Positions 17,301 through 53,967 of a DNA stretch of 64,000 bases are shown piece after piece. The notes under the pieces are model-generated. The model searched no databases. It saw nothing but the letters and a program-made list of their open reading frames with translations, and was not told where the DNA came from. Position 1 is the stretch's first letter. Each line of letters opens with the position of its first letter. The translations under genes and the position numbers were made by a program. The DNA comes from Sphaerodactylus townsendi (Eukaryota). The stretch covers positions 110,050,001-110,114,000 of the forward strand of contig NC_059427.1 in NCBI RefSeq assembly GCF_021028975.2. The letters run 5' to 3'.

Positions 17301-18289
17301 TAGATTATTTTATGTATTATTATTTTATTGTTTTTATACTGTTGTAAGCCACTCTGAATGTGATGCAGTAGAGGAAAGCAGAATAAAAATCAATCAAACA
17401 AACAAATAAATATTCTTAATTTGGATAAGGAATGTATTATTTGGCTGTGCTTTGAATCTGTATTTGCTCAGGATAAAGCACCCCCCTTTACACACACAAT
17501 TTTAATAAATCCCTCAGTAAATTCAATATTCATTTTAAAATCTTTAAATCACATCTCTGTCATCCTTTTCCTGCTGACATTTGCTGCTTATAGTCCCCTG
17601 TTAAGGTAAAAGAACCCAGTTGTTTACTCCCTGAACAAACATGCAAGTAGTTTGCATGCTAGTCTGCCCTTTCCTCGTCCCCACAACCAACTCCTTCCAA
17701 GGCACCAGCCAACCCTCCCCTGGGGCCAGTTCACCTAGCCACTTGCTCCAGTGAGCCCAACCCTTTCCAGATGCCTTGGCTTTGGGCTGGAGAGAGGAAG
17801 GGGGGTTCCAGCCCTCCTGCCCAACACAGCTCCACTCTTTCAAGGCAAGGCCCCAGCTCCTTACTCATCCAATTTCCTCATATAGCTGATACTCATCATG
17901 AATGGCATGGCTGTGGCAGGCAGGAAGGCAGAAAGTGATGGTACCCCCCTTCAAGTGGTGATCATACCTGCCATACCTTAGATACACCACTGGATGTGCA
18001 TTAAGTGCACTTCTGATTACTTCAAAATCTCTGTGCAAACTTATCCTGTGTACAGCCATTACCCTTTCATGAAATATCTGTGCAAACTCTAAACTTCCTT
18101 TGAGGTTTATTCATATGGCAGCTGGAAAATTGAACACTCTTTCTACACTGGGTAAAATAAAACTATAACCATTTTCTGAGGAGCTCAAACTAATGAAGGT
18201 ACCTTATCAAGGCAATATATATTGCACTAAGGCCAATCTAGCTTAAGTCTATTTACCTGACAGACAGAAGACGGAATAGGTGTGGTTTT

Positions 18290-18630
18290 TTGCACTGAAG
18301 AATAAAAGACTCATGGTTCACAAATTTGCATAAATAAATAGGATTCAAAGTTTTATAGCAGATCATACGACTGATAATTTCCTGTGAAAATCTGAATTAT
18401 TCTGATTTATGTGACTATCTGCTGATGTAAAGCCAGTGGACCTATGCAAACAAGGGCATTGGACAGTGGTTATGCCTCCTATTCTTGCTCTGAAACAAAT
18501 ATTGATTTAAAAATAAGTTCTAGATAGGCACAAGGTGTAGATGTATGTGTGTGCACAAGGTGTGGTGGTTACAATTAACTAAAAGAGTGACCAATCAGAT
18601 GAGAGATTTGAAACTCAGCTATATTTAAAG
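18290..18630 (+). promoter_or_regulatory. RETN-A proximal promoter: TATA-like TATATTTAAA (18620-18629), TTCCTGTGAA STAT6-type site (18379-18388), GATA motif (18372-18377), octamer/C-EBP-like ATTTGCATAA (18324-18333)
   Basis: Aligns by eye with the RETN-B promoter (34141-34450, minus strand), including aact(c/t)agct(a/g)tatttaaagggg. Confidence 0.7.
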
Positions 18631-18649
18631 GGGGCAGCACACTCAGTTT

Positions 18650-18678
18650 CTTGCAAGAAGTTCCCAATTCTAGAGATG
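18650..18678 (+). other. RETN: RETN-A exon 1 (5' UTR; ends in an ATG in frame with exon 2); start approximate
   Basis: Donor ATG|GTGAGT at 18679, ~50 bp after the TATA box; positionally homologous to the RETN-B exon 1 donor. Confidence 0.7.
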
Positions 18679-18829
18679 GTGAGTACTATGTGCTTGTTTG
18701 ACAACGTGATGTAGGACATAAAAATGGATAGCTTCTTCTACAAGTAGATTTCAAGAAAGGCTGTCAGCTCAATCTTATCAAACTCAATTAAAAAAACAAT
18801 TTTTTAAATTTAGTGATATTTTGCCTTTC

Positions 18830-19010
18830 TTCCCAATGGGAAGAAAGTTCTCCTTTTCTCCGTTTTATCATCACAGCAACCTTGCGAGGTAGGTTAGACT
18901 GAGTGTCACCTAGTGTCACTGGTCCAAGGTCACCCAGTGAGTTTTCATAGTGGAGTGCAGATTAGAACTTGGGTTTCTCAGATCCTAGTCCAGCACCTTA
19001 ACCACTGGCT
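18830..19010 (-). mobile_element. Degenerate Squam3-like SINE
   Basis: tcacagcaaccttgcgaggtaggttag...caaggtcacccagtgag...ttaaccac, the reverse complement of the SINE at 52229. Confidence 0.65.
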
Positions 19011-19340
19011 CTGATTCTAATGGACTAAATTGATTATTTACCAGTTTATTATTACAGTAGCCCAACAGAGGTAATGCTTCAGACCATTCAGTAAAGTATC
19101 TGAAGCAGTTTTTCTTAACCCAATTGCAGATTCAAATTATATCTGACTAGGAAAACTTAAATTCTTCCTCTGTAGCTAGAGATGTATATAGACTAGAGGT
19201 GACAAGATCTGGGATCTTCTCCGTGCCAACCAGGTACTCTCTCTCAGTCATGGGCCTGTCCAAGTAGCAAAGTGGTAATGGAATTCAACAGACTGTATAT
19301 ATAAGAAGGATCTCCCTTTATTCTTGTTTATGCCCTATTA

Positions 19341-20949
19341 CTGTGATGGCGAACCTATGGCACGGGTGCCCAAGGCAGCACTCAGAGCCCTCTCTGTGGG
19401 CAAGCATGCCGTCATCTCCCCCTCCCCCTTCCTCCCTCATCCAGCCAGAGGTGGCTGCCAGCAGACGCGTTGGGAGTCATACTGCACAGGCTGACTGTGC
19501 ACAAGGCGCTCTGCCAGCTGGAGCTGAGCTTCAGGGAGGTCCTCTTGAATCAACCTGATTTGCTGTAAGTACCATCTACTGCCCCACGAGTACCTCCTCT
19601 CCCCCAAAAGGCTTGGGAAACTGGAGGCTGGCACACTTTTCTTGGCATGTAACTTTTGGGACCAAACTAAAACATTGGGGGTAGGGTTAAAAAGCGGCAG
19701 CCCGGGTGAGGGGCTCCCATTGGGAGGAGTGCATCTGCCAAGAGCAGAGGCGAGGGAGCACACCAGTGGTGAGGATTCGGTGCGGCTCGTCCTGCATTGG
19801 GATGAAATCCATTTGTTAAGGGCCTCCTTCCCCTGGGAGAGAGGAGCATGATGGGGAACTTTCAAGTGCCTGGGGGCCCAGGTCAGGGAGGAGAGATCTG
19901 TAAAGGTTCCTAGAGCTCGTGACGTGCCCAATCCCGTTACCTTCACAGGATCAGAAGCAAAGAAATTACCAAAGGACAGGAGGCATTTCACACGCAAAAA
20001 AGAATTGAGCTTAAATCTACGCCCCTAAATCCAACTGGCAGGAAAAGGGAGAGGAGGCATCCCTTACTGCTCGTGGAGTAGCCCTTCTTCCCCACTCCCT
20101 TGTCCAGGAATTAGAGGCCATTCCTGACAGAAGCAAATGTGGGACAGAAGAGGTCCATTCTCAAAAAATATTCTCCATGCTTTATTGCTTTCTCCCTCCT
20201 GCTGCATTTCTTGTGGGAAGTCAAAGTGCTGTGATGACATGTGAAGGAAAAACACTGTAAATCAGATGGCTTGCTCCACCAATTTAGCTTTCCCCTGAAG
20301 TTATCCTGCACCCCTTGCACAGCATTCTTTGCTTAGGATGGTGTCTTGTTGACGCTGCCTTTTTACTTCCTATCTTTGTGGTGGGGGGGGTTGTTGGGTT
20401 TACTGGGAAAGCAAAAGTTTTACTTCCCTCTCCCCTACTATCCCTCCCCCTTCCCCTCGGCCAGGCCCCCCAGTGTGATAATAGTGCAATTGTTCAGGGG
20501 TTTTGCGTTAGCATTAAAACCCTAAGACCCTAGCTCTTCCTTCCTGGGGAAGCAGTCTGCGGTAAGTGACCCTGTTAAGCAGCTTCGTTAAACCCTACTA
20601 GATTTACTTACGGGAAAAGAACTAAAGCGTGATCCTTTACCTGGGAGTAAGCTTGGTTGCTTGCAATGGGACTTTAGCTTTTGAGTTAACCCTCCTAGGG
20701 ATTACCGTGATTCACCCATTCAAAGTGTAAATGCACGGTTTGGACCGTTACAAAGCAAAAGCTCAACCTGGAAACCCCTCACCACCGTTTACTCTCCCCT
20801 TGAAAGTAACGCGCACCTTGGAGCCAAACTTTTTTTTAAACTAAAGCCTCAGTATTCAGGCTAAATTGCCGTGTTGGCACTTTGTGATAAATAAGTGAGT
20901 TTTGGGTTGCAGCTTGGGCACTCAGTCTCGAAAAGGTTCGCCATCACTG
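19341..20949. mobile_element. 1.6-kb non-autonomous hAT element (CAGTGATGGCGAACC-type TIR) in RETN-A intron 1
   Basis: Termini CTGTGATGGCGAACC / GGTTCGCCATCACTG; perfect 8-bp TSD CCCTATTA at 19333-19340 and 20950-20957. Confidence 0.9.
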
Positions 20950-21340
20950 CCCTATTAGAACAAACCATTTAGTTTAAATGCTGGTTGCAGTCAGCTGCTA
21001 GCCTCCCCAGCAAAAAAAAAAAAGTGTTTTAAGGGTAATGTTCAGAGTGACAACTAAACCATAACATAATTTCTTAGATGTTAGCATGAGAGGTTTTATT
21101 GTGATCAGGAATGAGTGAGATTAGTTTATAAATATTTACAGACTTTTAACTTTTTAAAAATTAGGTATGGTTCAAACGTAATTATTCCCCCCACCCCTAT
21201 TTTTATGGTAACTGTATCTAGTTTCACAGTTTCCCTGCATCAACAATACTGTTGCTGTTTTTTCTTTTCCCCTTTGTTTTCCTTTTGGCTTCAAACATGA
21301 GCTAGTTGATGCTCAGAGTTTGCCAAACTAAATCATGTTC

Positions 21341-22081
21341 TTTCAGGGGGATGACTGCAAAGCTATTATGTCATGATCAGAGAAGCTGCAATACGTGCAT
21401 ATTTGTGCAGTTGTAACCGTGGAAAACCTTCACCAAATGTGAATGTATGTGAATTTAGGAGTTCTGGTCACTTTCCTCTGCTTCTAGATTTTACTGCCCT
21501 GACATATCACAGTATGTGATGACAGTGATTATTCCTCTACAGGATTCTCTGCACAAAATGATGAAGGTTACCATATTCCTGCTGGTTGCTATGCTGATCT
21601 TCAGCCAGTACACACGTGCTCAGTCATGTGCTGTTGATAATGCAATTGACCAGAAGATTGCGACATCTGTTGCCGCCAAAGGTATTTTGACTGTGTGGAC
21701 CCTTAATGTTGCTTTAAATGCTGAGTTTTGCTGGTTCTTTCTGCACAGCAGAAATAAAACATCCTGCAGACATTTTTAAAAGATCAGTTTTGGCTTTTTG
21801 TGTTCTTACACTGTGGAGAACACAAGTATTGCCAACCAAAATGGTTCCTTTCCCCCCATCTGCTGGCTGACGGAGTTCTGGTCAATTTCAGAGTTGTGCC
21901 TGTCATTTTGTGTGCTGCTGCAGAGATTCTCCTGCGTCTGCCATTTGATGAAGTTTTCCATGGCAACAAATGTATGGCCATTGATTTGGTGAAGGTTTTC
22001 CACGGTTACAACTGCACAAATATGCACGTATTGCAGCTTCTCTGATCGTGACATAATAGCTTTGCAGTCATCCCCCTGAAA
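21341..22081. repeat. 98-bp inverted repeat (arms 21341-21438 and 21984-22081) flanking RETN-A exon 2
   Basis: Arms are reverse complements with one mismatch seen (gtcaTgatc vs gtcaCgatc). Confidence 0.95.
21558..21681 (+). CDS. RETN: Resistin-like gene A, exon 2 (signal peptide + N-terminal Cys/helix); exon starts 21543
   Basis: Acceptor cctctacAG|GAT at 21542. Reads MMKVTIFLLVAMLIFSQYTRA-QSCAVDNAIDQKIATSVAAK. Phase-1 donor AAA G|GTATTT. Confidence 0.93.
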
Positions 22082-22520
22082 ACAAAAACAAAAAAAGGAA
22101 AAACAACATGTAAGTGGGATCGCTAGGCAAAACAGACTTTATTCATCTACTTTTTACATGGAAATCACATGCAGATAAGCTGCAAAAAGAGGAAACTTCT
22201 GTGGGGAACCTTCAGAGAATCTCTACTGCAGCACACAAAATGGCGGGTGTGAATGATGAAAATGAAAGAGGTTTAGGGGGAAGAAATAAAGCATTTCCTG
22301 CCTGTTTTTGTTCATTCAGCAGGCCAGAAACATCTTCAGTCCAGGTTGGGGGGGAGGCGGGGAAGATTACTAATTTAGTGATTTTTGAAAATACTCAGGT
22401 TGAGATAAATAAAATGTTTTGAAGATATTTTGGGGGAGGGAGCTGTGCAAACTTCTTTCCCAAAATGCTTTTTAAAACGTCCTAAAGATGTTTTATTTCT
22501 GCTGTGTGGAAATCACCATT
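21731..22520. mobile_element. Degenerate palindromic MITE (possibly PIF/Harbinger-derived) in RETN-A intron 2
   Basis: cacagcagaaataaaacatc at ~21744 is mirrored by gatgttttatttctgctgtgtg at ~22487; internal cattttgtgtgctgc / gcagcacacaaaatgg symmetry. Confidence 0.65.
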
Positions 22521-24332
22521 GCCCCTCTACAATTCTTGATTTCTCCTTCAATGAATTGTCTGATTCTTACAAAAACTAATAGTTCTTGCTTAGAAGATCA
22601 GAAAGTCAAGCACTGTTACCTGTTGCTTTTCTGAATTTTCACATACTGGCAGTTTCTCTGGATGACTACTGCACAAGGGTGCCCAAGCCACCATCATTCT
22701 GTGCAAGCTGCAAGGAACTGACACTCATCCTCCTCCCCTTCCCCCTGTACCATGAAAGAAGGAAGAGGAAGGTGATCTGCGAAGGAACCTCCCAAGGCTG
22801 CTGCTTGCCAACCACATCCCAATGTCCAAATTGATGGAACTGTGGTACAGCTCATTGACAACCCTCCATCTCTAGTGTTTTAGACCTAGGACCTAGTGAA
22901 TGCATTAGCTTTGAACTGTAGCCTAACCTGATTAAGATGGTGGGGGCTACTGCACTTGCTACTGGACCACTGTCTTTTTAAGCAGAGAGCAATAGCCACC
23001 TCATCTTCTTCCTCACAGGAAGCATGGTTGAGGTGCGACTGCAATGGCTACTGCTGCTGCTTCCTCTTCTTTTTGTAAGGAGGAGTCAGTGGAGTAGTGA
23101 AATGTTCATGCAGAGTGTGCCTTATAAATGGAAAGATGGTTATTCAAAAATTAGACTGCCCATCTGAGGAGTTTTCCAGCTTCTTTTATTGAGCTTTAAC
23201 TCAATTTTGTCTGCCACTTAAGATCTCTCCATTATTCATTCACTGTTTGTTATTATATGAAGGAAAATGTATATAATATATGAAGAGCAAAAATGTATAT
23301 AATATATGAAGAGCAATTTGTACTTTTGCCCGCTCTTCAAAAATGTAGATCCAGCCCTGAGAAGGAGCTGCTACCTCATAGCCTCATCACCCACCATGAT
23401 GGCCTCACATAATTACAAAACAGTACAGGCCAATCATATGACCTGAAATCCATGGTTGCTTTAACTTACAATCTGTGTTTGCTCTTACACCCTCTGTAGC
23501 TCATTTTCAAAAAACTCTGCTATTATGACCAATCCTAGTTCATTCTTATGTTTGCTGAAATAAATTTCAGGTTAGATCCATCCTGAATTGAGAAACCCAT
23601 CATAATAGCCAATAACCTTACTTGACAATATTGAACTCTAATTTCTCATTAACAAGAGTCCAGAAACTGGCATCCTCAACTGCGACTTCTTCCACTTTCT
23701 GTGGGTTTAAAAAGCACTTTTAAGCACTCAAGACATCTCCCTGCAAGATTGTCAGACACATTCCTCAGTGTACTTAATCCTTTTTAGAGAGCATAGTAGA
23801 AAGCTCCTTAAAGAGCAGTACCCACTGTACATTTTTAACCTGCTGTAAAAATGAATATTTTAATAGTGACACTGAAAATTAATATACCATCCTAAGTACC
23901 ATTCTGTGTTCCTTGCTTGGGAGGAAACTGTTGGCATTTGGTTGACTATGGATCAGCCCAGTCCTGTGTGTGAGTGTAGTAAAGAGCTCTCCCAAACAGA
24001 TATCTGCAAAAAGGAAAACTGACATTTATTTCAAGTAACTGTGAATCACAAACATTGTTCCTGGTGAAATATAGACAGAAACCTTATATGCATGCACACA
24101 AAAGCTTATACCAAGATAAACTTCGTTGGTCTTAAAGGTGTCACTAAAATCAAACTTTTTTTCTGCTGCTTCAGGCCAACACGGCTACCCACCTGAATCC
24201 AACAGGAAGTCGTTAATGAAGCAGAGAATTGGAAGCTATTTCAAAATAGGAGCAGGAAAAGTTTAAGGGGACTGTGGGGGAAGAAGGTTTTCATTAATAT
24301 TTTTCTCCTTTGCTGCAAAGTGTCCTCATTAA

Positions 24333-24520
24333 CTGGGGTGCTGTGTGATTTCCGGGCTGTATGCATCTGTGGCTGGCATCTTCAGAGAATCTGAAGAAGA
24401 AGATGTCAGCCATAGATGCAGGCGAAACGTCAGGAGAGAATGCTGCTAGAACATGGCCATACAGCCCAGAAACCACGCAGCAGCCCAATGATTCCTGCCA
24501 TGAAAGCCTTTGACAATACA
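24333..24520. mobile_element. Penelope-like pLTR fragments in inverted arrangement
   Basis: Left part matches 8980-9070 with a deletion; right part is the reverse complement of 8927-9066. Confidence 0.8.
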
Positions 24521-24662
24521 TTGTCCTCATTAATGTTTTCCCCTTTTCATTATTATAATTTGTAATCAGGAAGGAGATAAGTATCTGTAGCCAAGGCAAG
24601 TATAATCCAGAGGACCCAAGATGGAGTTTCTATCAGAGCAGGTTTCTGGAGAGGCAGACAAC

Positions 24663-25625
24663 CAGGGATGTAGGTATAGATTTTTTTATGGGGGGAGTTC
24701 AGGGCAGGGCCACACTTCCCCCAGCCCCGCCCCTACCCTCAGTGCTTATCAAAGCAGCTCTCCGAGGCCAGGGGTGGCAGACCCCCCCCCCCCCCCCCCC
24801 CACTGGCTGGGCTCCCAGCCAGCAATCCCTTCTGCCCTCCACTCCAGGCAGAGGCATAGCTAGGGAAAATGGAGTCCGGTGCAAAATCTGAGGTTTGTGC
24901 CCCCACCCCCCATTGGGCAGCCACTGTGAAGCTGGAATCCACCCCCAAACAACATCGCTTTCAATGGTGTTTAAACCTGGGAACCCAGGTTCTCCTTTTA
25001 AATCCACCTTAAAGGGAGAATCTGGGGTCCCCAGTTTAAACAACACTGAAAGTGATGCTGTTTTGGGGTGGATTATCCCCCACCCTTAAACGGCATAACT
25101 TTCAATGTTTAAACTGGGGACCTCACATTCTCCCTTTAAATCCATGCCAAAGGGGTGGATTTAAAAGGAGAATCTGGGGAAATTTAGGGGGTGCCTGCTG
25201 TCAGGGGTGCAATTGTTAAGCTAGCAGCGCCAAACTTTCTGGGTATCTTTAGGAGACTCTCCTGATGATACCACCCAGGTTTGGAGAAGTTTGGTTCATG
25301 GGAGCCAAAGTTATGGAACCTCAAACGTGTAGCCCCATCACCTATTAGCTCCCATTGGAAACAATGGGGGATGGGAGCACTCCCTTTGGGAGTCCATAAC
25401 TTTGGACCCCCTGAACCAAACCTCACCAAACCTGGGTAGTATCATCAGCAGAGTCTCCCAACAAATCCCTGCAATTTTGGTGTTGCTAGCCTAAAAATGC
25501 ACCCCCTGCAGGTCAAAAACCAAAAGAACACTAAAAAAATACAAAAAACCCACAAACCGGGGCAGAGCTTTGGACATGTAATGGGGGGGTTGAACCCCAG
25601 AACCCCACCCTTACCTATGTCCTTG
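24663..25625. mobile_element. Non-autonomous hAT-like element in RETN-A intron 2
   Basis: Termini CAGGGATGTAGGTA / TACCTATGTCCTTG; 8-bp TSD CAGACAAC / CAGGCAAC (1 mismatch). Confidence 0.75.
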
Positions 25626-25828
25626 CAGGCAACCGATACATTTTTTAAATAATAAAGAAGTAAAAATGCATGGGTGATTGTGCAGAATATATCCCTGCTC
25701 GTATGGGAATGAAACTGATCTCACTTGCTTCTAGTTTTCTGTATAATAATGGGGGGGGGGGGGGTAAACTTTTTCAGCTTGAGCAAGGGTGGTTTGTGGT
25801 GACAGTAACCCCCTATCTTATCTTGCAG

Positions 25829-25906
25829 TGTCAGCAGCCCTGGCGAGAGCCCAGCTGGTTTGTATAAACATAAGTTCACGTGGAAGACTTGCCGTCTGTC
25901 CTTCAG
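25829..25906 (+). CDS. RETN: Resistin-like gene A, exon 3 (78 nt)
   Basis: tcttgcAG|TG...CCTTCAG|GTGAGT; (V)SAALARAQLVCINISSRGRLAVCPS(G); C-X11-C spacing of the resistin signature. Confidence 0.95.
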
Positions 25907-26176
25907 GTGAGTCACTCCATGTTGCTGTTGTGGAAGAAACTTAAAAGCTGGAGTAATTACAACAGGTGGGCATGAAGGAAAATTACTCTACAGGCATGTT
26001 TTAAAAAGATCTCATGGGTATTTGCTTGCCTTGGGAATACTTGAGTATAAAGTGCAAGCTAGTCTGTTGCAGGGCAAGCAAGCATTTGTATGTGATGATG
26101 CTGGAAAATTAAGATCTTCTGACATGTAATGGATCAGGCATTCAACTGCCTTTCATTGTAACATTTTTCCCCTTAG

Positions 26177-26307
26177 GCTACAAAACTACTTCCTGTTCCT
26201 GTGGAATGGCTTGTGGTTCCTGGGATATTCGAAATGAAAATATCTGTCACTGCCAGTGTGCCGTCATGGACTGGGCATCTGCCCGATGTTGCAAAGTGAG
26301 CATCTGA
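26177..26307 (+). CDS. RETN: Resistin-like gene A, exon 4 (Cys-rich head, stop codon)
   Basis: ccttAG|GC; (G)[42 protein letters not shown]. Completes C-X11-C-X8-C-X-C-X3-C-X10-C-X-C-X-C-X9-CC. Confidence 0.97.
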
Positions 26308-26354
26308 CAATTCCTCAGCTGCTTGCTGGCTCTCTGGGCCTAAGTACTTCGACC

Positions 26355-26360
26355 AATAAA
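26355..26360 (+). terminator. RETN-A polyadenylation signal AATAAA
   Basis: AATAAA 48 nt after the stop, followed by GT/T-rich sequence. Confidence 0.8.
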
Positions 26361-27905
26361 AGCATCAAACCCTTTTTGAGGAGTCCAGTGTTTGAGTATT
26401 TTCCTTGTAGACTAAGAAACTGGCGGGGGGGCGGGGAGGGCTTCATTGCCAATGGGACAAATGCTGCTACTCCATACTTATAGTAAGCTTGACTTTCTTC
26501 TGTTTATATAGGAACCCTGCATCCTGGCTTTTGCCCTGTAAAATGATTCAAAATCTCCAAAGTGGGGAAATGAAGGGAAAGATGTAATAGGTTTGTTCCA
26601 AGACACCCTAAAAAAGTACAGAGGACAATTGACTATCTGGAAAAAATATTTCCAAAGAAACCATAACTTTGGGACAGAAACAGTGTAAGCTTATTGCTGT
26701 CTGAACAGTCAGGCCTCACCTTAGTCACTCACCTGGCAGGTTGACACTCCCCACCCCCCACGACAGCTGCAGGGTGAAGGAAGAGGAAGAGCCACTTGAA
26801 GAAAACTCAATATGAGATAGACTGATTCAAGCAGAATTTCCCAACCTGTGAGTCAGGACTCTACTGTGGGTTGTGAACAGTGGTGGGATTCAAATAATTT
26901 AACAACTGGTTCCATTGGTGGGATTCAAATAATTTAACAGCTGATTGTTTACAAGCACCATTTTAACAACCGGTTCTGCAGAAGTGAGATGCTGAACCTG
27001 CCTGGAATCCCACTCACTGGCTGTGTGAATCCCTTTGAAAGTGGGTCCACTGACAGCCCTGGGGCCAAATGAGTGGTTCTTCTTGGGTAGGCTTTGATAT
27101 CCTAGGTACATTTTCTTTCCTCTTTCCAACTTCTCACATTCTCATCCACCACCCCCTGTGACAATAATGGGGCAGTGGGGCGGGGGGAGCCTTCAGCTAC
27201 TAGTAACTTCACAGAAGCAGCCGGAACAAGCAGGTGTTGCGAGACTGGAAAATAAATGGGAGCTGTGAAGAATGTCATGGAAAAACCAGAGGAGAGAAAG
27301 AGATATGTGTGTGAATGGGCTCTCTTGGTGCTGCTCCTTCAGTGGCCCAACCTCTTACACAATCCCCAGCAATGCCTCACTATCTTCTGCCTGCTGTGTT
27401 AGATATACTGCACTGAGTCCTTTATCACCTACTTCTTTACCACCATCTTTCATCATCATGTATCTCTTCAACCCAGCATATTCTGAGTGCACAGTTCCAA
27501 ATTCCTGCTTGCCCCAGCTGGCAGAGGAGGAAGAGATGAACAATCACTTGCTTGGGGTTCATAGTGTTGGAATAAGCGACTTCTGCACGCCTGGACAATG
27601 GGGGGCTGTGTATCTTTAAGCTGTTCTTTTGTTTGCTCTCCATGTCTAAGGGTCCGCCCACCAACTCCTCCTTCTTCACCTTTGGAGCCGTTTTCTTTCT
27701 TCTCTTTTGTACTGAGCACAATGGTAACGGCTACCTGCGCCTGCTGAGACTTTCCCACAGAAGCAGATCACACTCGCACGTATGTGATGGCATGTTAGAA
27801 TGCCCATTTGTTATAGGGAAGTTATCTCTTTAGTTTAAGGTTTCTATCTATGCTTGTGATCCAAAGCTACTTGAAATAAATGTAAGTTTTCCTTTTTTGC
27901 ATATA

Positions 27906-31287: not shown

Positions 31288-31427
31288 TCAGCTGCCGACA
31301 AGACCTAGTTTGCAACACCGGGCAGAAGTCCAGTCTATGTTCTGACACTGGCAGTGGCAAGCAGAATTGCCACGGATATCCCAGGACCCACAAGCCATTC
31401 CACAGGCGCAGCCAGTGGGCTTGTAAC
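31288..31427 (-). CDS. RETN: Resistin-like gene B, exon 4
   Basis: catcctAG|GT; (G)[45 protein letters not shown]. Confidence 0.97.
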
Positions 31428-31529
31428 CTAGGATGAAAAGAAAGAGGTGAAAGGGAAAGGCAGCAGAACACTTCACCTTGTCCTCAATTCCCAATTCTTA
31501 ATTCTCTCCCCCTCTATCACATGACTCAC

Positions 31530-31607
31530 CTGAAGGACAGAAGGCATCAGCCCCACGTGATGTCACACTGGTACAAATAATATCAAGTTTTGAGAGGGCT
31601 GAAGTCC
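31530..31607 (-). CDS. RETN: Resistin-like gene B, exon 3 (78 nt)
   Basis: ccttgcAG|GG...CCTTCAG|GTGAGT; (G)TSALSKLDIICTSVTSRGADAFCPS(G). Confidence 0.95.
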
Positions 31608-32460
31608 CTGCAAGGCAAGACAATCGTTACTTTAACCATAGTCACCCTTAAGTACATAAGAGCACCCTTAATGGATCAGACTAATGACCCACCTAGTCCA
31701 GCGATCTGCTTCTCTGGTAGACCCAGATGCATGGTCTGTTAATTTGAATGAGTGCCCACAGTCTCCAGAATTGCAGGCAAGGGAGGAAAATCCCCTTTAA
31801 TGTTAGTGCTCAGGTCAAGTACTACCTGAATAACTAAGCTGACAGCAAGAAGTAAAAGAAATTCACTGTCATTTCCAAAACAGAAATCACATTCAAACAA
31901 CTCTGGGTCATGTCTGTCCTGGTCATAAAAATAACATTTGTATATGTTTTTCCTTTATCCTTTATAGCAGACCAAATCAGTTCATCTATGACAAATACAA
32001 CAAATTGAGTATGGGCATCTTCAAGTTGCTGATATCTCATTCCATTTTCTTTCTTGGGGTGCTGCATGCAATACAAATCTGTAAAATAGAGAGGGAATTC
32101 ACAGGGCATGGAGGAGGCAGAGCACAGCTATGTGCCTTACCCAAAAACAGATAGCTATCCTGAGTGAAAGTGAGCTAGCCACAATAAAAGAGCTTTTCTC
32201 CTCTGATCTGGACTACAGAGGGGGGAAGATGAAAACTGGACCTTTCAGGCCCTTGCCTGAGGAATAATTTGTTGTGCTAGCAGGGCAGGAGGGAAAGAGG
32301 GACTATGGCGGATTCTGCATGGGCCAAAAACAGCAGTGTGAAAACAGTGAAAACAGCCCAATCCAACACACTAACAACTAACTACACGATATTGTCTCTA
32401 AACCTCTGCTCCCAAATCTCCAAGAATTTATCAAGCTGAAGGTTTCACAGAACTGAATAC

Positions 32461-32593
32461 CTAGTGCTTCAGAGGACGACTTGATCATCAGGTTAATCAC
32501 ATTATCAACTGCACATGACTGAGCACATGACTGAGCACGTATATACTGAGAAGGGATCAGCGCTACAAACAGCAAGAATATGGCTGTCTTCAT
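32461..32593 (-). CDS. RETN: Resistin-like gene B, exon 2 (signal peptide + N-terminus); exon starts 32612
   Basis: ctccacAG|GAAG acceptor; MKTAIFLLFVALIPSQYIRA-QSCAQSCAVDNVINLMIKSSSEAL; phase-1 donor CTA G|GTATTC. Confidence 0.93.
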
Positions 32594-34088
32594 TATCCCG
32601 GTGCAGAACTTCCTGTGGAGAAGAGAAATGTCAAGCCATCATATACTATGCCATGCCAGGGTGGCAGAATCTGGAAGGAGACAAGAGTTCCTTATCACAT
32701 AATAACTTTATAACAACCAATTAAAAATCTAACAAAGTTAATAAAATTCTTCCGCACTGTTGGAAAAGAAGCCAAAAAAAGCCAAATAAAGGGAATGGTT
32801 GAGGGACTTTATGTGAAACCATAAATCATCATAGATGATTTTATTTAGGTTTTTTTTTAAAAAAAAAACTATGATTTAAGATGCAGTTATTTTGGGGGGG
32901 AGGGAGGGGATAATTGTGATTATATCATATGTTAATATGCTTTTTTAAAATTGTAATCTGCCTTAACCCAAGCAGAGTGTAAATGTATTTTAAATAAACA
33001 AATAATACATACATAATTTCCTTTTTAAAAAATAGGCTGAGATTTTGTACATAGATCCATATTTGTTTTGGAATACACAAAGATGCCTGAGTATACTATC
33101 AGTCTATGAAGACTGGTATTGCCTACTCTGACTGGCAGCTATTTGCTATGATCTCAAGTAGAGGTCTTTCATACCACCCACTACGTGATATTTTTAACTG
33201 GAAATGCTGGGAACTGAACTTGAGACATTGTACATGCAAAACAAGCACTCTCCCTAGTCCCTCTCCTCCTGCATGCACTGGAGTGTGAATCCTTTCTCTG
33301 CGGTTTGTTTTTCTTCTTAAAATCCCCTCTCCATTTTCTTCTTCCTATTGAGTTGCAGATGTGTGTTTATAAGAATAATTCTGTACCTGAATTCTTGAGA
33401 GGAAAGCATATTGAAGGAATGATTTTGAGGGGGGGAAATAACCTGCACTCCCAAGGTCTGCCCCACTGAACCCATCAGCTGAGGTTACATTAACAGCTTA
33501 GAGATTTCATCCAAATGAACCCATCAAAGAAATGTAGCTAGAATGACCAGGACCCCAGAGATCCTACCACTTTCAGTGCTCCAAAACAATGATAAAGTAT
33601 GCATTTTGCATCTGCACTTCCAACATGTTCTTCCACATATCCATCGCCTGTATTTCTTCTCCATCTGCTGTGCAGTAGAACCGAAGTCCTGCAGCTACAG
33701 CAGGGAGGAAAGGAAGGTGAACTAATTTTTGTGTGGTCTTTTCCTAGCAATTGCTTATTTGTATTTGCAATTCAGTTTTAAAAAAACTGCTACAGATACT
33801 TCACTCAGTGTTCTCAAAACATTACCTGCATCAATATATGATATAATTGGTAATCAATATAGCCCATTAAAAACAAATTATTGAGAGTTTTTAAAAACTC
33901 TCAAAAAATTCTAAAAACTTTTTTTTTAAAACACACCTATGACCCAGATCAGAATGTATGGATCACATGTTAAGGCAGTTTGGCAAAGTTTCTATTGGCA
34001 GTTTCTGTTGGAATATACACATATATGAAACAAATTCCTATGTCCCATTATTTCCCCTCCCAGCTCTGTCTAACAAACACACACTTAC

Positions 34089-34118
34089 CTTCTAGAAGCA
34101 AGAGTTTCTTTCAGTGTC
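34089..34118 (-). other. RETN: RETN-B non-coding exon 1 (start approximate)
   Basis: Donor GAAG|GTAAGT at 34088, ~50 bp downstream of TATTTAAA; intron start resembles that of RETN-A. Confidence 0.7.
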
Positions 34119-34140
34119 ACTAATGAAGCACACTGTCCCC

Positions 34141-34500
34141 TTTAAATACAGCTAAGTTGCAGCATTTCTCAACAAGGTAAACTTACACTTTTCAAACAAC
34201 GTTAATCTCCTGTCCACAGCTGGACAATGCCTGAAGCAATTCCTTACACAATCTTATAAAATTTCCAGATTTGCTCAATATTTATGATGCAAAACAAGCA
34301 AAAATATTTACTTAACGATAGCAGATTTGGGGAAATAATGATAGTGCGGGGCTTTTTCCAGGAAATATCAATTTGGTGATCTGCTGAAAGAAACCCCATT
34401 TCTCAGTGCAAACAATGCAAACAATGAGATCCCTGTTCTTCAGACGAAAACAGCAACAAATATTAATATGAACAGCTTCCTCCTTTCAAGTTCCAGGAAA
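34141..34500 (-). promoter_or_regulatory. RETN-B proximal promoter: TATTTAAA (34141-34148), C/EBP-type sites (34243-34252, 34271-34279), two TTCCAGGAA GAS sites (34356-34364, 34491-34499)
   Basis: Motifs read directly; region is homologous to the RETN-A promoter. Confidence 0.7.
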
Positions 34501-52228: not shown

Positions 52229-52578
52229 GGAGCAGCAGTGGTTAGTGGCATAGTGGTTAAGTGCAGGTGCATTCTAATTTGGAGGAACCGGGTTTGATTC
52301 CCCGCTCTGCCACCTGAGCTGTGGAGGCTTACCTGGGGAATTCAGATTAGCCTGTGCGCTCCCACACACGCCAGCTGGGTGACCTTGAGCTAGTTGCATC
52401 TCTTCAGAGCTCTCTCAGTCCCACCCACCTCACAGGGTGTTTGTTGTGAGGGGAGAAGGGCAAGGAGATTGTCAGCCCCTTTGAGTCTACTACAGGAGAG
52501 AAAGGGGGGATATAAATCCAAACTCCTCCTCTTCTTCTTCTTCTTCTTCTTGTCCTTGTCCTTCTCCTCCTCCTCCTT
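52229..52578 (+). mobile_element. Squam3-type tRNA-derived SINE with (CTT)n tail
   Basis: A box tggcatagtgg, B-box-like ggtttgattccc, body ctgggtgaccttg...cctcacagggtg, tail tataaatccaaactc(ctt)n. Confidence 0.85.
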
Positions 52579-53663: not shown

Positions 53664-53967
53664 AGGAGGAGTAGTAGTAGTTTGGAGTTATATCCCCCCT
53701 TTCTCTCCTATAGGAGACTCAAAGGGGCTGACAATCTCCTTGCACTTCCCCCCTCACAACAAACACCCTGTGAGGTGGGTGGGGCTGAGAGAGCTCCGAA
53801 AAGCTGTGACTAGCCCAAGGTCACCCAGCTGGCATGTGTAGGAGTGCACAGGCTAATCTGAATTCCCCAGATAAGCCTCCACAACTCAAGCGGCAGAGCT
53901 GGGAATCAAACCTGGTTCCTCCAGACCAAAGTGCACCTGCTCTTAGCCACTACACCACTGCTGCTCC
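53664..53967 (-). mobile_element. Squam3-type SINE, same subfamily as 52229, inverted
   Basis: Reverse complement shares the diagnostic ctggggaattcagattagcctgtgc block. Confidence 0.85.

Follow-up and report, generated by a model that had tools for sequence, protein, structure and literature searches.

The arrangement closest to the one analyzed here is that of TBXT. In the hominoid AluSx1-AluY pair, and in mouse Tbxt insRCS2/insRCS, an inverted copy of downstream-intron sequence lies in the upstream intron, with one exon between (PMC10901737). As that study describes it, a 220-bp intron 6 sequence placed inverted in intron 5 of mouse Tbxt led to skipping and to tails about 10% shorter; Xia et al. 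urge a search for natural non-Alu cases (PMC10901737). Primate inverted Alu pairs likewise form intronic, repeat-derived duplexes across an exon, and gain of a pair is linked to lower inclusion; in the reporter experiments described in PMC13019944, seven of eight pre-selected pairs skipped less after arm deletion, by about 1 to more than 40 PSI points. The disease-causing intragenic inverted duplications of MANBA (PMC6549551) and CHM (PMC8756506) are ascribed to template switching and form pre-mRNA hairpins, with skipping proposed or seen. Intronic repeat duplexes also drive circular RNA formation (PMC4201285). As to how inverted copies arise, germline templated insertions can involve more than one template switch, according to the account of MMB-TI in PMC8421209.

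In a window of 64,000 nucleotides from the gecko Sphaerodactylus townsendi, exon 2 of a resistin-like gene is bracketed by two near-identical inverted arms (Table 1). As in TBXT, the arms lie in both introns flanking one exon and form a stable duplex in silico, and one of them is new in one lineage and stands beside an older repeat. Set against TBXT and Tbxt as PMC10901737 presents them, the gecko pair is natural, non-Alu and 98 bp long (near-perfect) rather than 220 to 297 bp, its skipping product would be a null rather than an in-frame isoform, and it is known from DNA alone. In the MANBA and CHM reports, the duplications span 1.7 to 13 kb and the exons themselves are duplicated and buried in the stem, whereas here intronic sequence alone was copied and the exon sits in the loop. 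The gecko partner also appears to have been copied locally from a decayed MITE-like element, in contrast to the second transposition described for Alu pairs (PMC13019944). By analogy, the gecko arms, if they work at all, would work as the TBXT/insRCS2 arrangement does.

Table 1. Features of the resistin-like locus and its inverted arms, in coordinates of the window
Feature	Position	Strand	Remarks
TATA-like box at 18622; predicted short exon 1, whose final bases are ATG (18676-18678)	18622..18678	+	5′ end putative
Left arm	21341..21438	+	very probably derived, as an inverted copy of 21984-22081; lies in intron 1
Junction scar, 8 nt	21439..21446	+	relatives resume at 21447
Exon 2	21543..21681	+	139 nt, with the second ATG at 21558; N-terminus resembling a signal peptide; phase-1 donor, modest in strength
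Old MITE-like palindromic repeat, intron 2	21732..22518	.	copy-specific internal rearrangement near 21960-22014
Right arm	21984..22081	+	very probably the template; embedded in MITE-like copy, intron 2
Exon 3	25829..25906	+	78 nt
Exon 4	26177..26360	+	resistin Cys-rich domain; stop 26305-26307; AATAAA at 26355
Paralog, second resistin-like gene	31300..34149	-	convergent, intact

The host gene has the features of the resistin/RELM family: exon 4 matches PF06954 (resistin; E = 1.4e-18), the product is of about 110 residues, and there are three main coding exons, to which the public model adds an ATG-only exon 1. With that ATG, exons 2 to 4 translate to 116 aa that equal XP_048347586.1 (resistin-like beta, Sphaerodactylus townsendi) exactly; the introns on either side of exon 2 measure 2864 and 4147 nt. 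Exon 2, whose signal peptide was judged by its hydrophobic N-terminus, is 83% identical to Euleptes europaea resistin across 89% of the exon. The TATA region matches that of the paralog at 25 of 29 positions (E = 4e-4), placing the TATA box at 18622 and the exon 1 donor at 18679. Two other candidates for exon 1 were dropped for 18679, one at 20562, at the edge of a very high-copy repeat, and one at 21165. All five sites in 18000-21543 at which ATG directly precedes GT lie upstream of the left arm (the four further ones would yield an identical protein), and thus the public model splices across the left arm. Since it does so and has exon 2, inclusion of exon 2 probably occurs, the RNA support of the public model being taken as is. 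The in-frame ATG that ends exon 1 gives this model six extra N-terminal residues, an extension absent from the paralog and from the Euleptes protein, which begins at the second methionine.

The paralog has an open frame of 116 aa, and no comparable inverted pair was noted there. Two of four genome candidates for resistin match, both within this window; lineage-specific duplicates are described as common in non-avian reptiles (PMC4467842). Close to the predicted signal-peptide cleavage site, exon 2 of the paralog (32540-32517, minus strand) contains a 12-nt tandem duplication that repeats four residues; cysteines in the paralog number 12, and its exon 2 donor is very weak. About 65 nt of intron before exon 2 of the host gene (21477-21542) are conserved with 32681-32613 of the paralog (minus strand). 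This stretch holds a second pyrimidine-tract AG, at 21488, which outscores the annotated acceptor on a rough matrix and could serve as an alternative acceptor, 49 nt away from the helix. Rfam gave 0 matches at the gathering score over 18000-27000, and no literature on this locus was found among the CC-licensed PMC and bioRxiv texts listed.

The first-pass annotation had reported 98-bp arms with a single mismatch around a 545-nt loop that holds exon 2 and both of its splice sites. Self-comparison of the window returned the same coordinates, length, mismatch and loop exactly, and exon 2 does lie within the loop with its splice sites, separated from the left arm by 104 nt and from the right by 302 nt. 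It had also placed the right arm inside a MITE-like repeat and called the left arm isolated; self-comparison and family copies agree on both points. The pair exceeds chance (BLAST E = 3e-46), and similarity breaks off sharply at either end of the arms. The sole mismatch, 21374 T versus 22048 G, lies at a CpG that is retained in the right arm, as in 8 of 10 family copies, and is present in its deaminated form in the left. In sense RNA it pairs as a G-U wobble, so that 98 of 98 positions can pair.

The MITE-like copy is about 790 bp long, with 51-nt terminal inverted repeats (21732-21782 and 22468-22518) that are 80% matched. Its relatives in the genome are 68-76% alike across long stretches, measure 730-885 bp (n = 4) and occupy seven loci in 999,902 sampled bases; the longest ATG frame is 82 aa. 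Terminal inverted repeats, small size, high copy number and the lack of a transposase are all as in MITEs. A consistent target-site duplication was absent at the ends of the window copy and of four of five other copies (in the fifth, the ends were not found), and naming therefore goes only as far as MITE-like. At 21943-22002, the left half of the central palindrome is missing from the window copy, which contains a short local duplication with filler; the right arm begins at the second copy of this duplication. Judging by its structure, this may be the scar of an earlier repair event at the very place later used as a template. The displaced left half of the central palindrome was itself rejected as the source of the left arm, which, the CpG base aside, reverse-complements the local right arm exactly, private variants included.

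Those private variants bear directly on the origin of the left arm. In the 67 columns to which at least 6 of 10 family copies contribute, five positions of the right arm deviate from the majority, and the left arm has all five. The left arm also spans a copy-specific junction unmatched by 9 of 10 family copies, and the best other genomic copy, among the 40 scored of 355 candidates, is 91% alike over 67 nt. Its first two bases are also ancestral flank, which leaves 2 nt common to flank and template at the left junction, a microhomology that is weak alone. Past the other end, 21437-21444 repeats the adjoining flank 21447-21454, suggestive of a second, short template switch, in a junction model that is incomplete at the four ancestral letters. 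No transposon ends were found in the insert. The recent template-switch duplication proposed in the first pass is upheld by these shared private variants, the microhomology, the templated scar and an empty allele in two relatives, and the insertion was likely a template switch in DNA repair or replication. We hold the direction and mechanism of copying with high confidence.

An inverted copy from nearby, junction microhomology with a possible second template, and an empty ancestral allele are features of templated insertions. Polymerase-theta-type scars belong in the same group. The gecko insertion resembles MMB-TI in its inverted nearby template, short microhomology, second short switch and small site loss, but its template lies 545 nt from the copy, outside the 100-bp window searched in PMC8421209. 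Separately, a 17/18 direct repeat (E = 0.008 in a 1.7-kb self-comparison) links 21458-21475, in the flank right of the insertion, with 21872-21889 in the MITE-like copy. It lies within sequence that the relatives share and thus predates the insertion; it is either chance or the product of an earlier exchange between the two places.

The age of the left arm can be judged from read contigs of four of the 11 listed runs: two from the assembly species (organism A; two samples of one study, one of which may be the assembly's source) and one each from relatives B and C, from two studies. In both organism A runs, contigs at 20930-21370 and 21341/21409-21761 tile the left arm with 0 differences; one contig bridges the right junction fully, and those across the left junction reach 30 letters into the arm, one under the 31-letter bridging rule. 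In both relatives, single contigs with more than 200 letters on either side connect 21342 with 21447 through four letters; organism C has the right arm in place. A and B differ at 3 of 1046 bases (about 0.3%) and A and C at 10 of 929 (about 1.1%), as counted in three single-copy pieces each, with gaps, repeat rows and two C contigs left out. On these contigs, the left arm appears to be a recent gain. Because A is nearer B than C, one gain in A, of 104 bp replacing 4, is the simplest history, and the arm may also be an older polymorphism.

The same contigs speak to whether the pair is an assembly artefact or, failing that, an independent transposon insertion from elsewhere. The near-miss at the left junction and the sample that may be the assembly's own would leave room for the former, but the second sample has identical junctions, the arms differ at a CpG, and the empty site in the relatives is clean. 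The empty site also speaks against an independent insertion, as do the private variants, which indicate a local template, and the fact that no element ends inside the arm. We give these two readings together practically no weight, and on the evidence seen, the arms are not an assembly artefact. The A-B distance predicts 0.28 mismatches per 98 nt, with P(≤1) = 0.97; a single mismatch in 98 agrees with an arm that arose when A and B split or later. Gene conversion, which the first-pass annotation had offered as an ongoing process, is not needed and was dropped, since age alone explains the identity of the arms. That the arms are near-identical and the MITE symmetry is decayed reflects their different ages. 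That the pair is real, recent and accidental in origin seems to us very probable.

To gauge how often such pairs occur, 10-kb pieces were taken at even spacing from this genome, 100 in all (999,902 bases). This sample holds one inverted pair of at least 80 nt, at least 97% identity and at most 2 kb spacing, and seven of at least 60 nt and at least 95%. Each of the two background pairs inspected, including the one of at least 80 nt, consists of the ends of young multi-copy transposons; therefore, one-off pairs like the exon 2 arms should number less than about 3 per Mb (rule of three). They would be uncommon, yet some exon somewhere in 1.8 Gb is expected to be bracketed. The elements inspected, L054:5131-5697 and L037:830-1222, have terminal repeats matched at 99-100% (184 and 61 nt) and appear to be recently active DNA transposons; a related piece lies about 5 kb from several L037-like copies, as in longer autonomous elements. 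The window itself holds another inverted pair, of 294 nt at 88%, at 52244-52537 and 53666-53959, with 1128 nt between.

Folding in full context predicts the 98-bp helix, with a mean arm pairing of 0.986; the arm duplex comes to -187 kcal/mol in silico, compared with -49 for the MITE's own ends. Nine inverted pairs lie in the predicted pre-mRNA, and the arm pair alone straddles exon 2. The predicted accessibility of the exon 2 splice sites does not change with the insertion (0.46 versus 0.49 for one site, 0.48 versus 0.48 for the other). Masking of the splice sites by the helix was rejected on these values, and any splicing effect must therefore come by looping out exon 2. The first pass had held that skipping removes the signal peptide and shifts the frame; translation bears this out and gives a 13-codon product, with a stop 39 nt ahead of the last junction; by the 50-nt rule, the skipped transcript should for the most part evade NMD. 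In-frame methionines remaining in the skipped mRNA lack a signal peptide.

The explanation that we favor, and to which as a whole we give an even chance, is that 98 bp of the MITE-like repeat were copied from intron 2 backwards into intron 1 by a template switch, that the arms would pair into a 98-bp RNA helix in vivo, and that this helix likely brings about partial, unregulated skipping of exon 2. From skipped mRNA, 13 residues would be translated and no protein secreted. Overall, this would amount to a tolerated partial knock-down particular to the species, with normal transcripts and the intact paralog as a buffer. Counting for skipping are the position of the arms as the sole pair straddling exon 2, the precedents, and the exon 2 donor, which at 2.5 is the weakest of the three (the others score 5.8 and 8.1 on a rough matrix). 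Counting against strong skipping, the Tbxt arms, at 220-297 bp, are longer than the gecko arm. In both organism A samples the arm is present and the frame intact, which fits a small effect. Skipping at a level of 5% or more seems to us about as probable as not.

It is somewhat less probable, though well within reach, that the same insertion is a neutral scar, with splicing practically unchanged. Exon 2 might be committed cotranscriptionally before the right arm pairs or, jointly or instead, RNA-binding proteins and ADAR might disrupt the helix. The public model includes exon 2, splice-site accessibility is the same as without the arm, the splice sites lie 104 and 302 nt away from the arms, and the frame is intact in both A samples; in the constructs that PMC4201285 describes, stability alone did not predict outcome. 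All of this would suit a scar. What weighs on the other side is a perfect 98-bp helix around a 545-nt loop with no competing partner, together with the mouse Tbxt non-Alu inverted pairs, which, as PMC10901737 reports, did give skipping.

The first-pass annotation had gone further, to a potential RNA switch and to a possible circular exon 2, and neither proposal is supported. A regulated or selected off-switch, in which the helix is tuned by ADAR or helicases, for example during inflammation, and is favored by selection or kept by gene conversion, could point to its fitting geometry, to 30 and 26 adenosines in the two arms, and to the arm in 2 of 2 A samples. We regard it as very unlikely: the arm is a very young accident, younger than a split of about 0.3%, its identity is explained by age alone, nothing points to regulation or conservation, two samples are too few to show a sweep, and the public model has exon 2. 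Back-splicing into an abundant circular exon 2 seems slightly less likely still. [quoted passage not shown]

The insertion also creates a weak acceptor and a weak donor at 21347-21444, and hence a possible 98-nt pseudo-exon. Were the cryptic acceptor at 21347 and donor at 21445 used, an early stop would follow the exon 1 ATG; the helix would normally mask this pseudo-exon. Both sites lie within inserted sequence, and the donor, at 2.5, equals that of exon 2. The acceptor, at 3.5, is weaker than the genuine acceptors (4.7-5.8) and lies enclosed in the predicted helix, and the matrix is a rough one. Such exonization, with its masking, is as improbable in our view as the off-switch, and partial, unregulated skipping remains the reading that we prefer.

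Among the literature matches listed, none concerns this gene, which is not known to have a function in geckos; the biological stakes are accordingly limited. The mechanism is a known one, and the instance is new: a natural equivalent of the insRCS2 allele engineered in mouse Tbxt. Both alleles exist in nature, about 0.3% apart, and offer a ready before/after comparison. If a 98-bp stem with a 545-nt loop suffices, templated insertions would be splicing mutations even deep in introns; if it does not, the case sets a bound on the rule. One can envision, as a doubtful but larger claim, that a single 100-bp repair accident rather than a new transposon insertion made a dead repeat into an RNA clamp, so that one gecko species, unlike its sister, has one of its two resistin-like genes substantially silenced; local templated inverted insertions would in that case be an overlooked general source of species-specific skipping in genomes that lack Alu.
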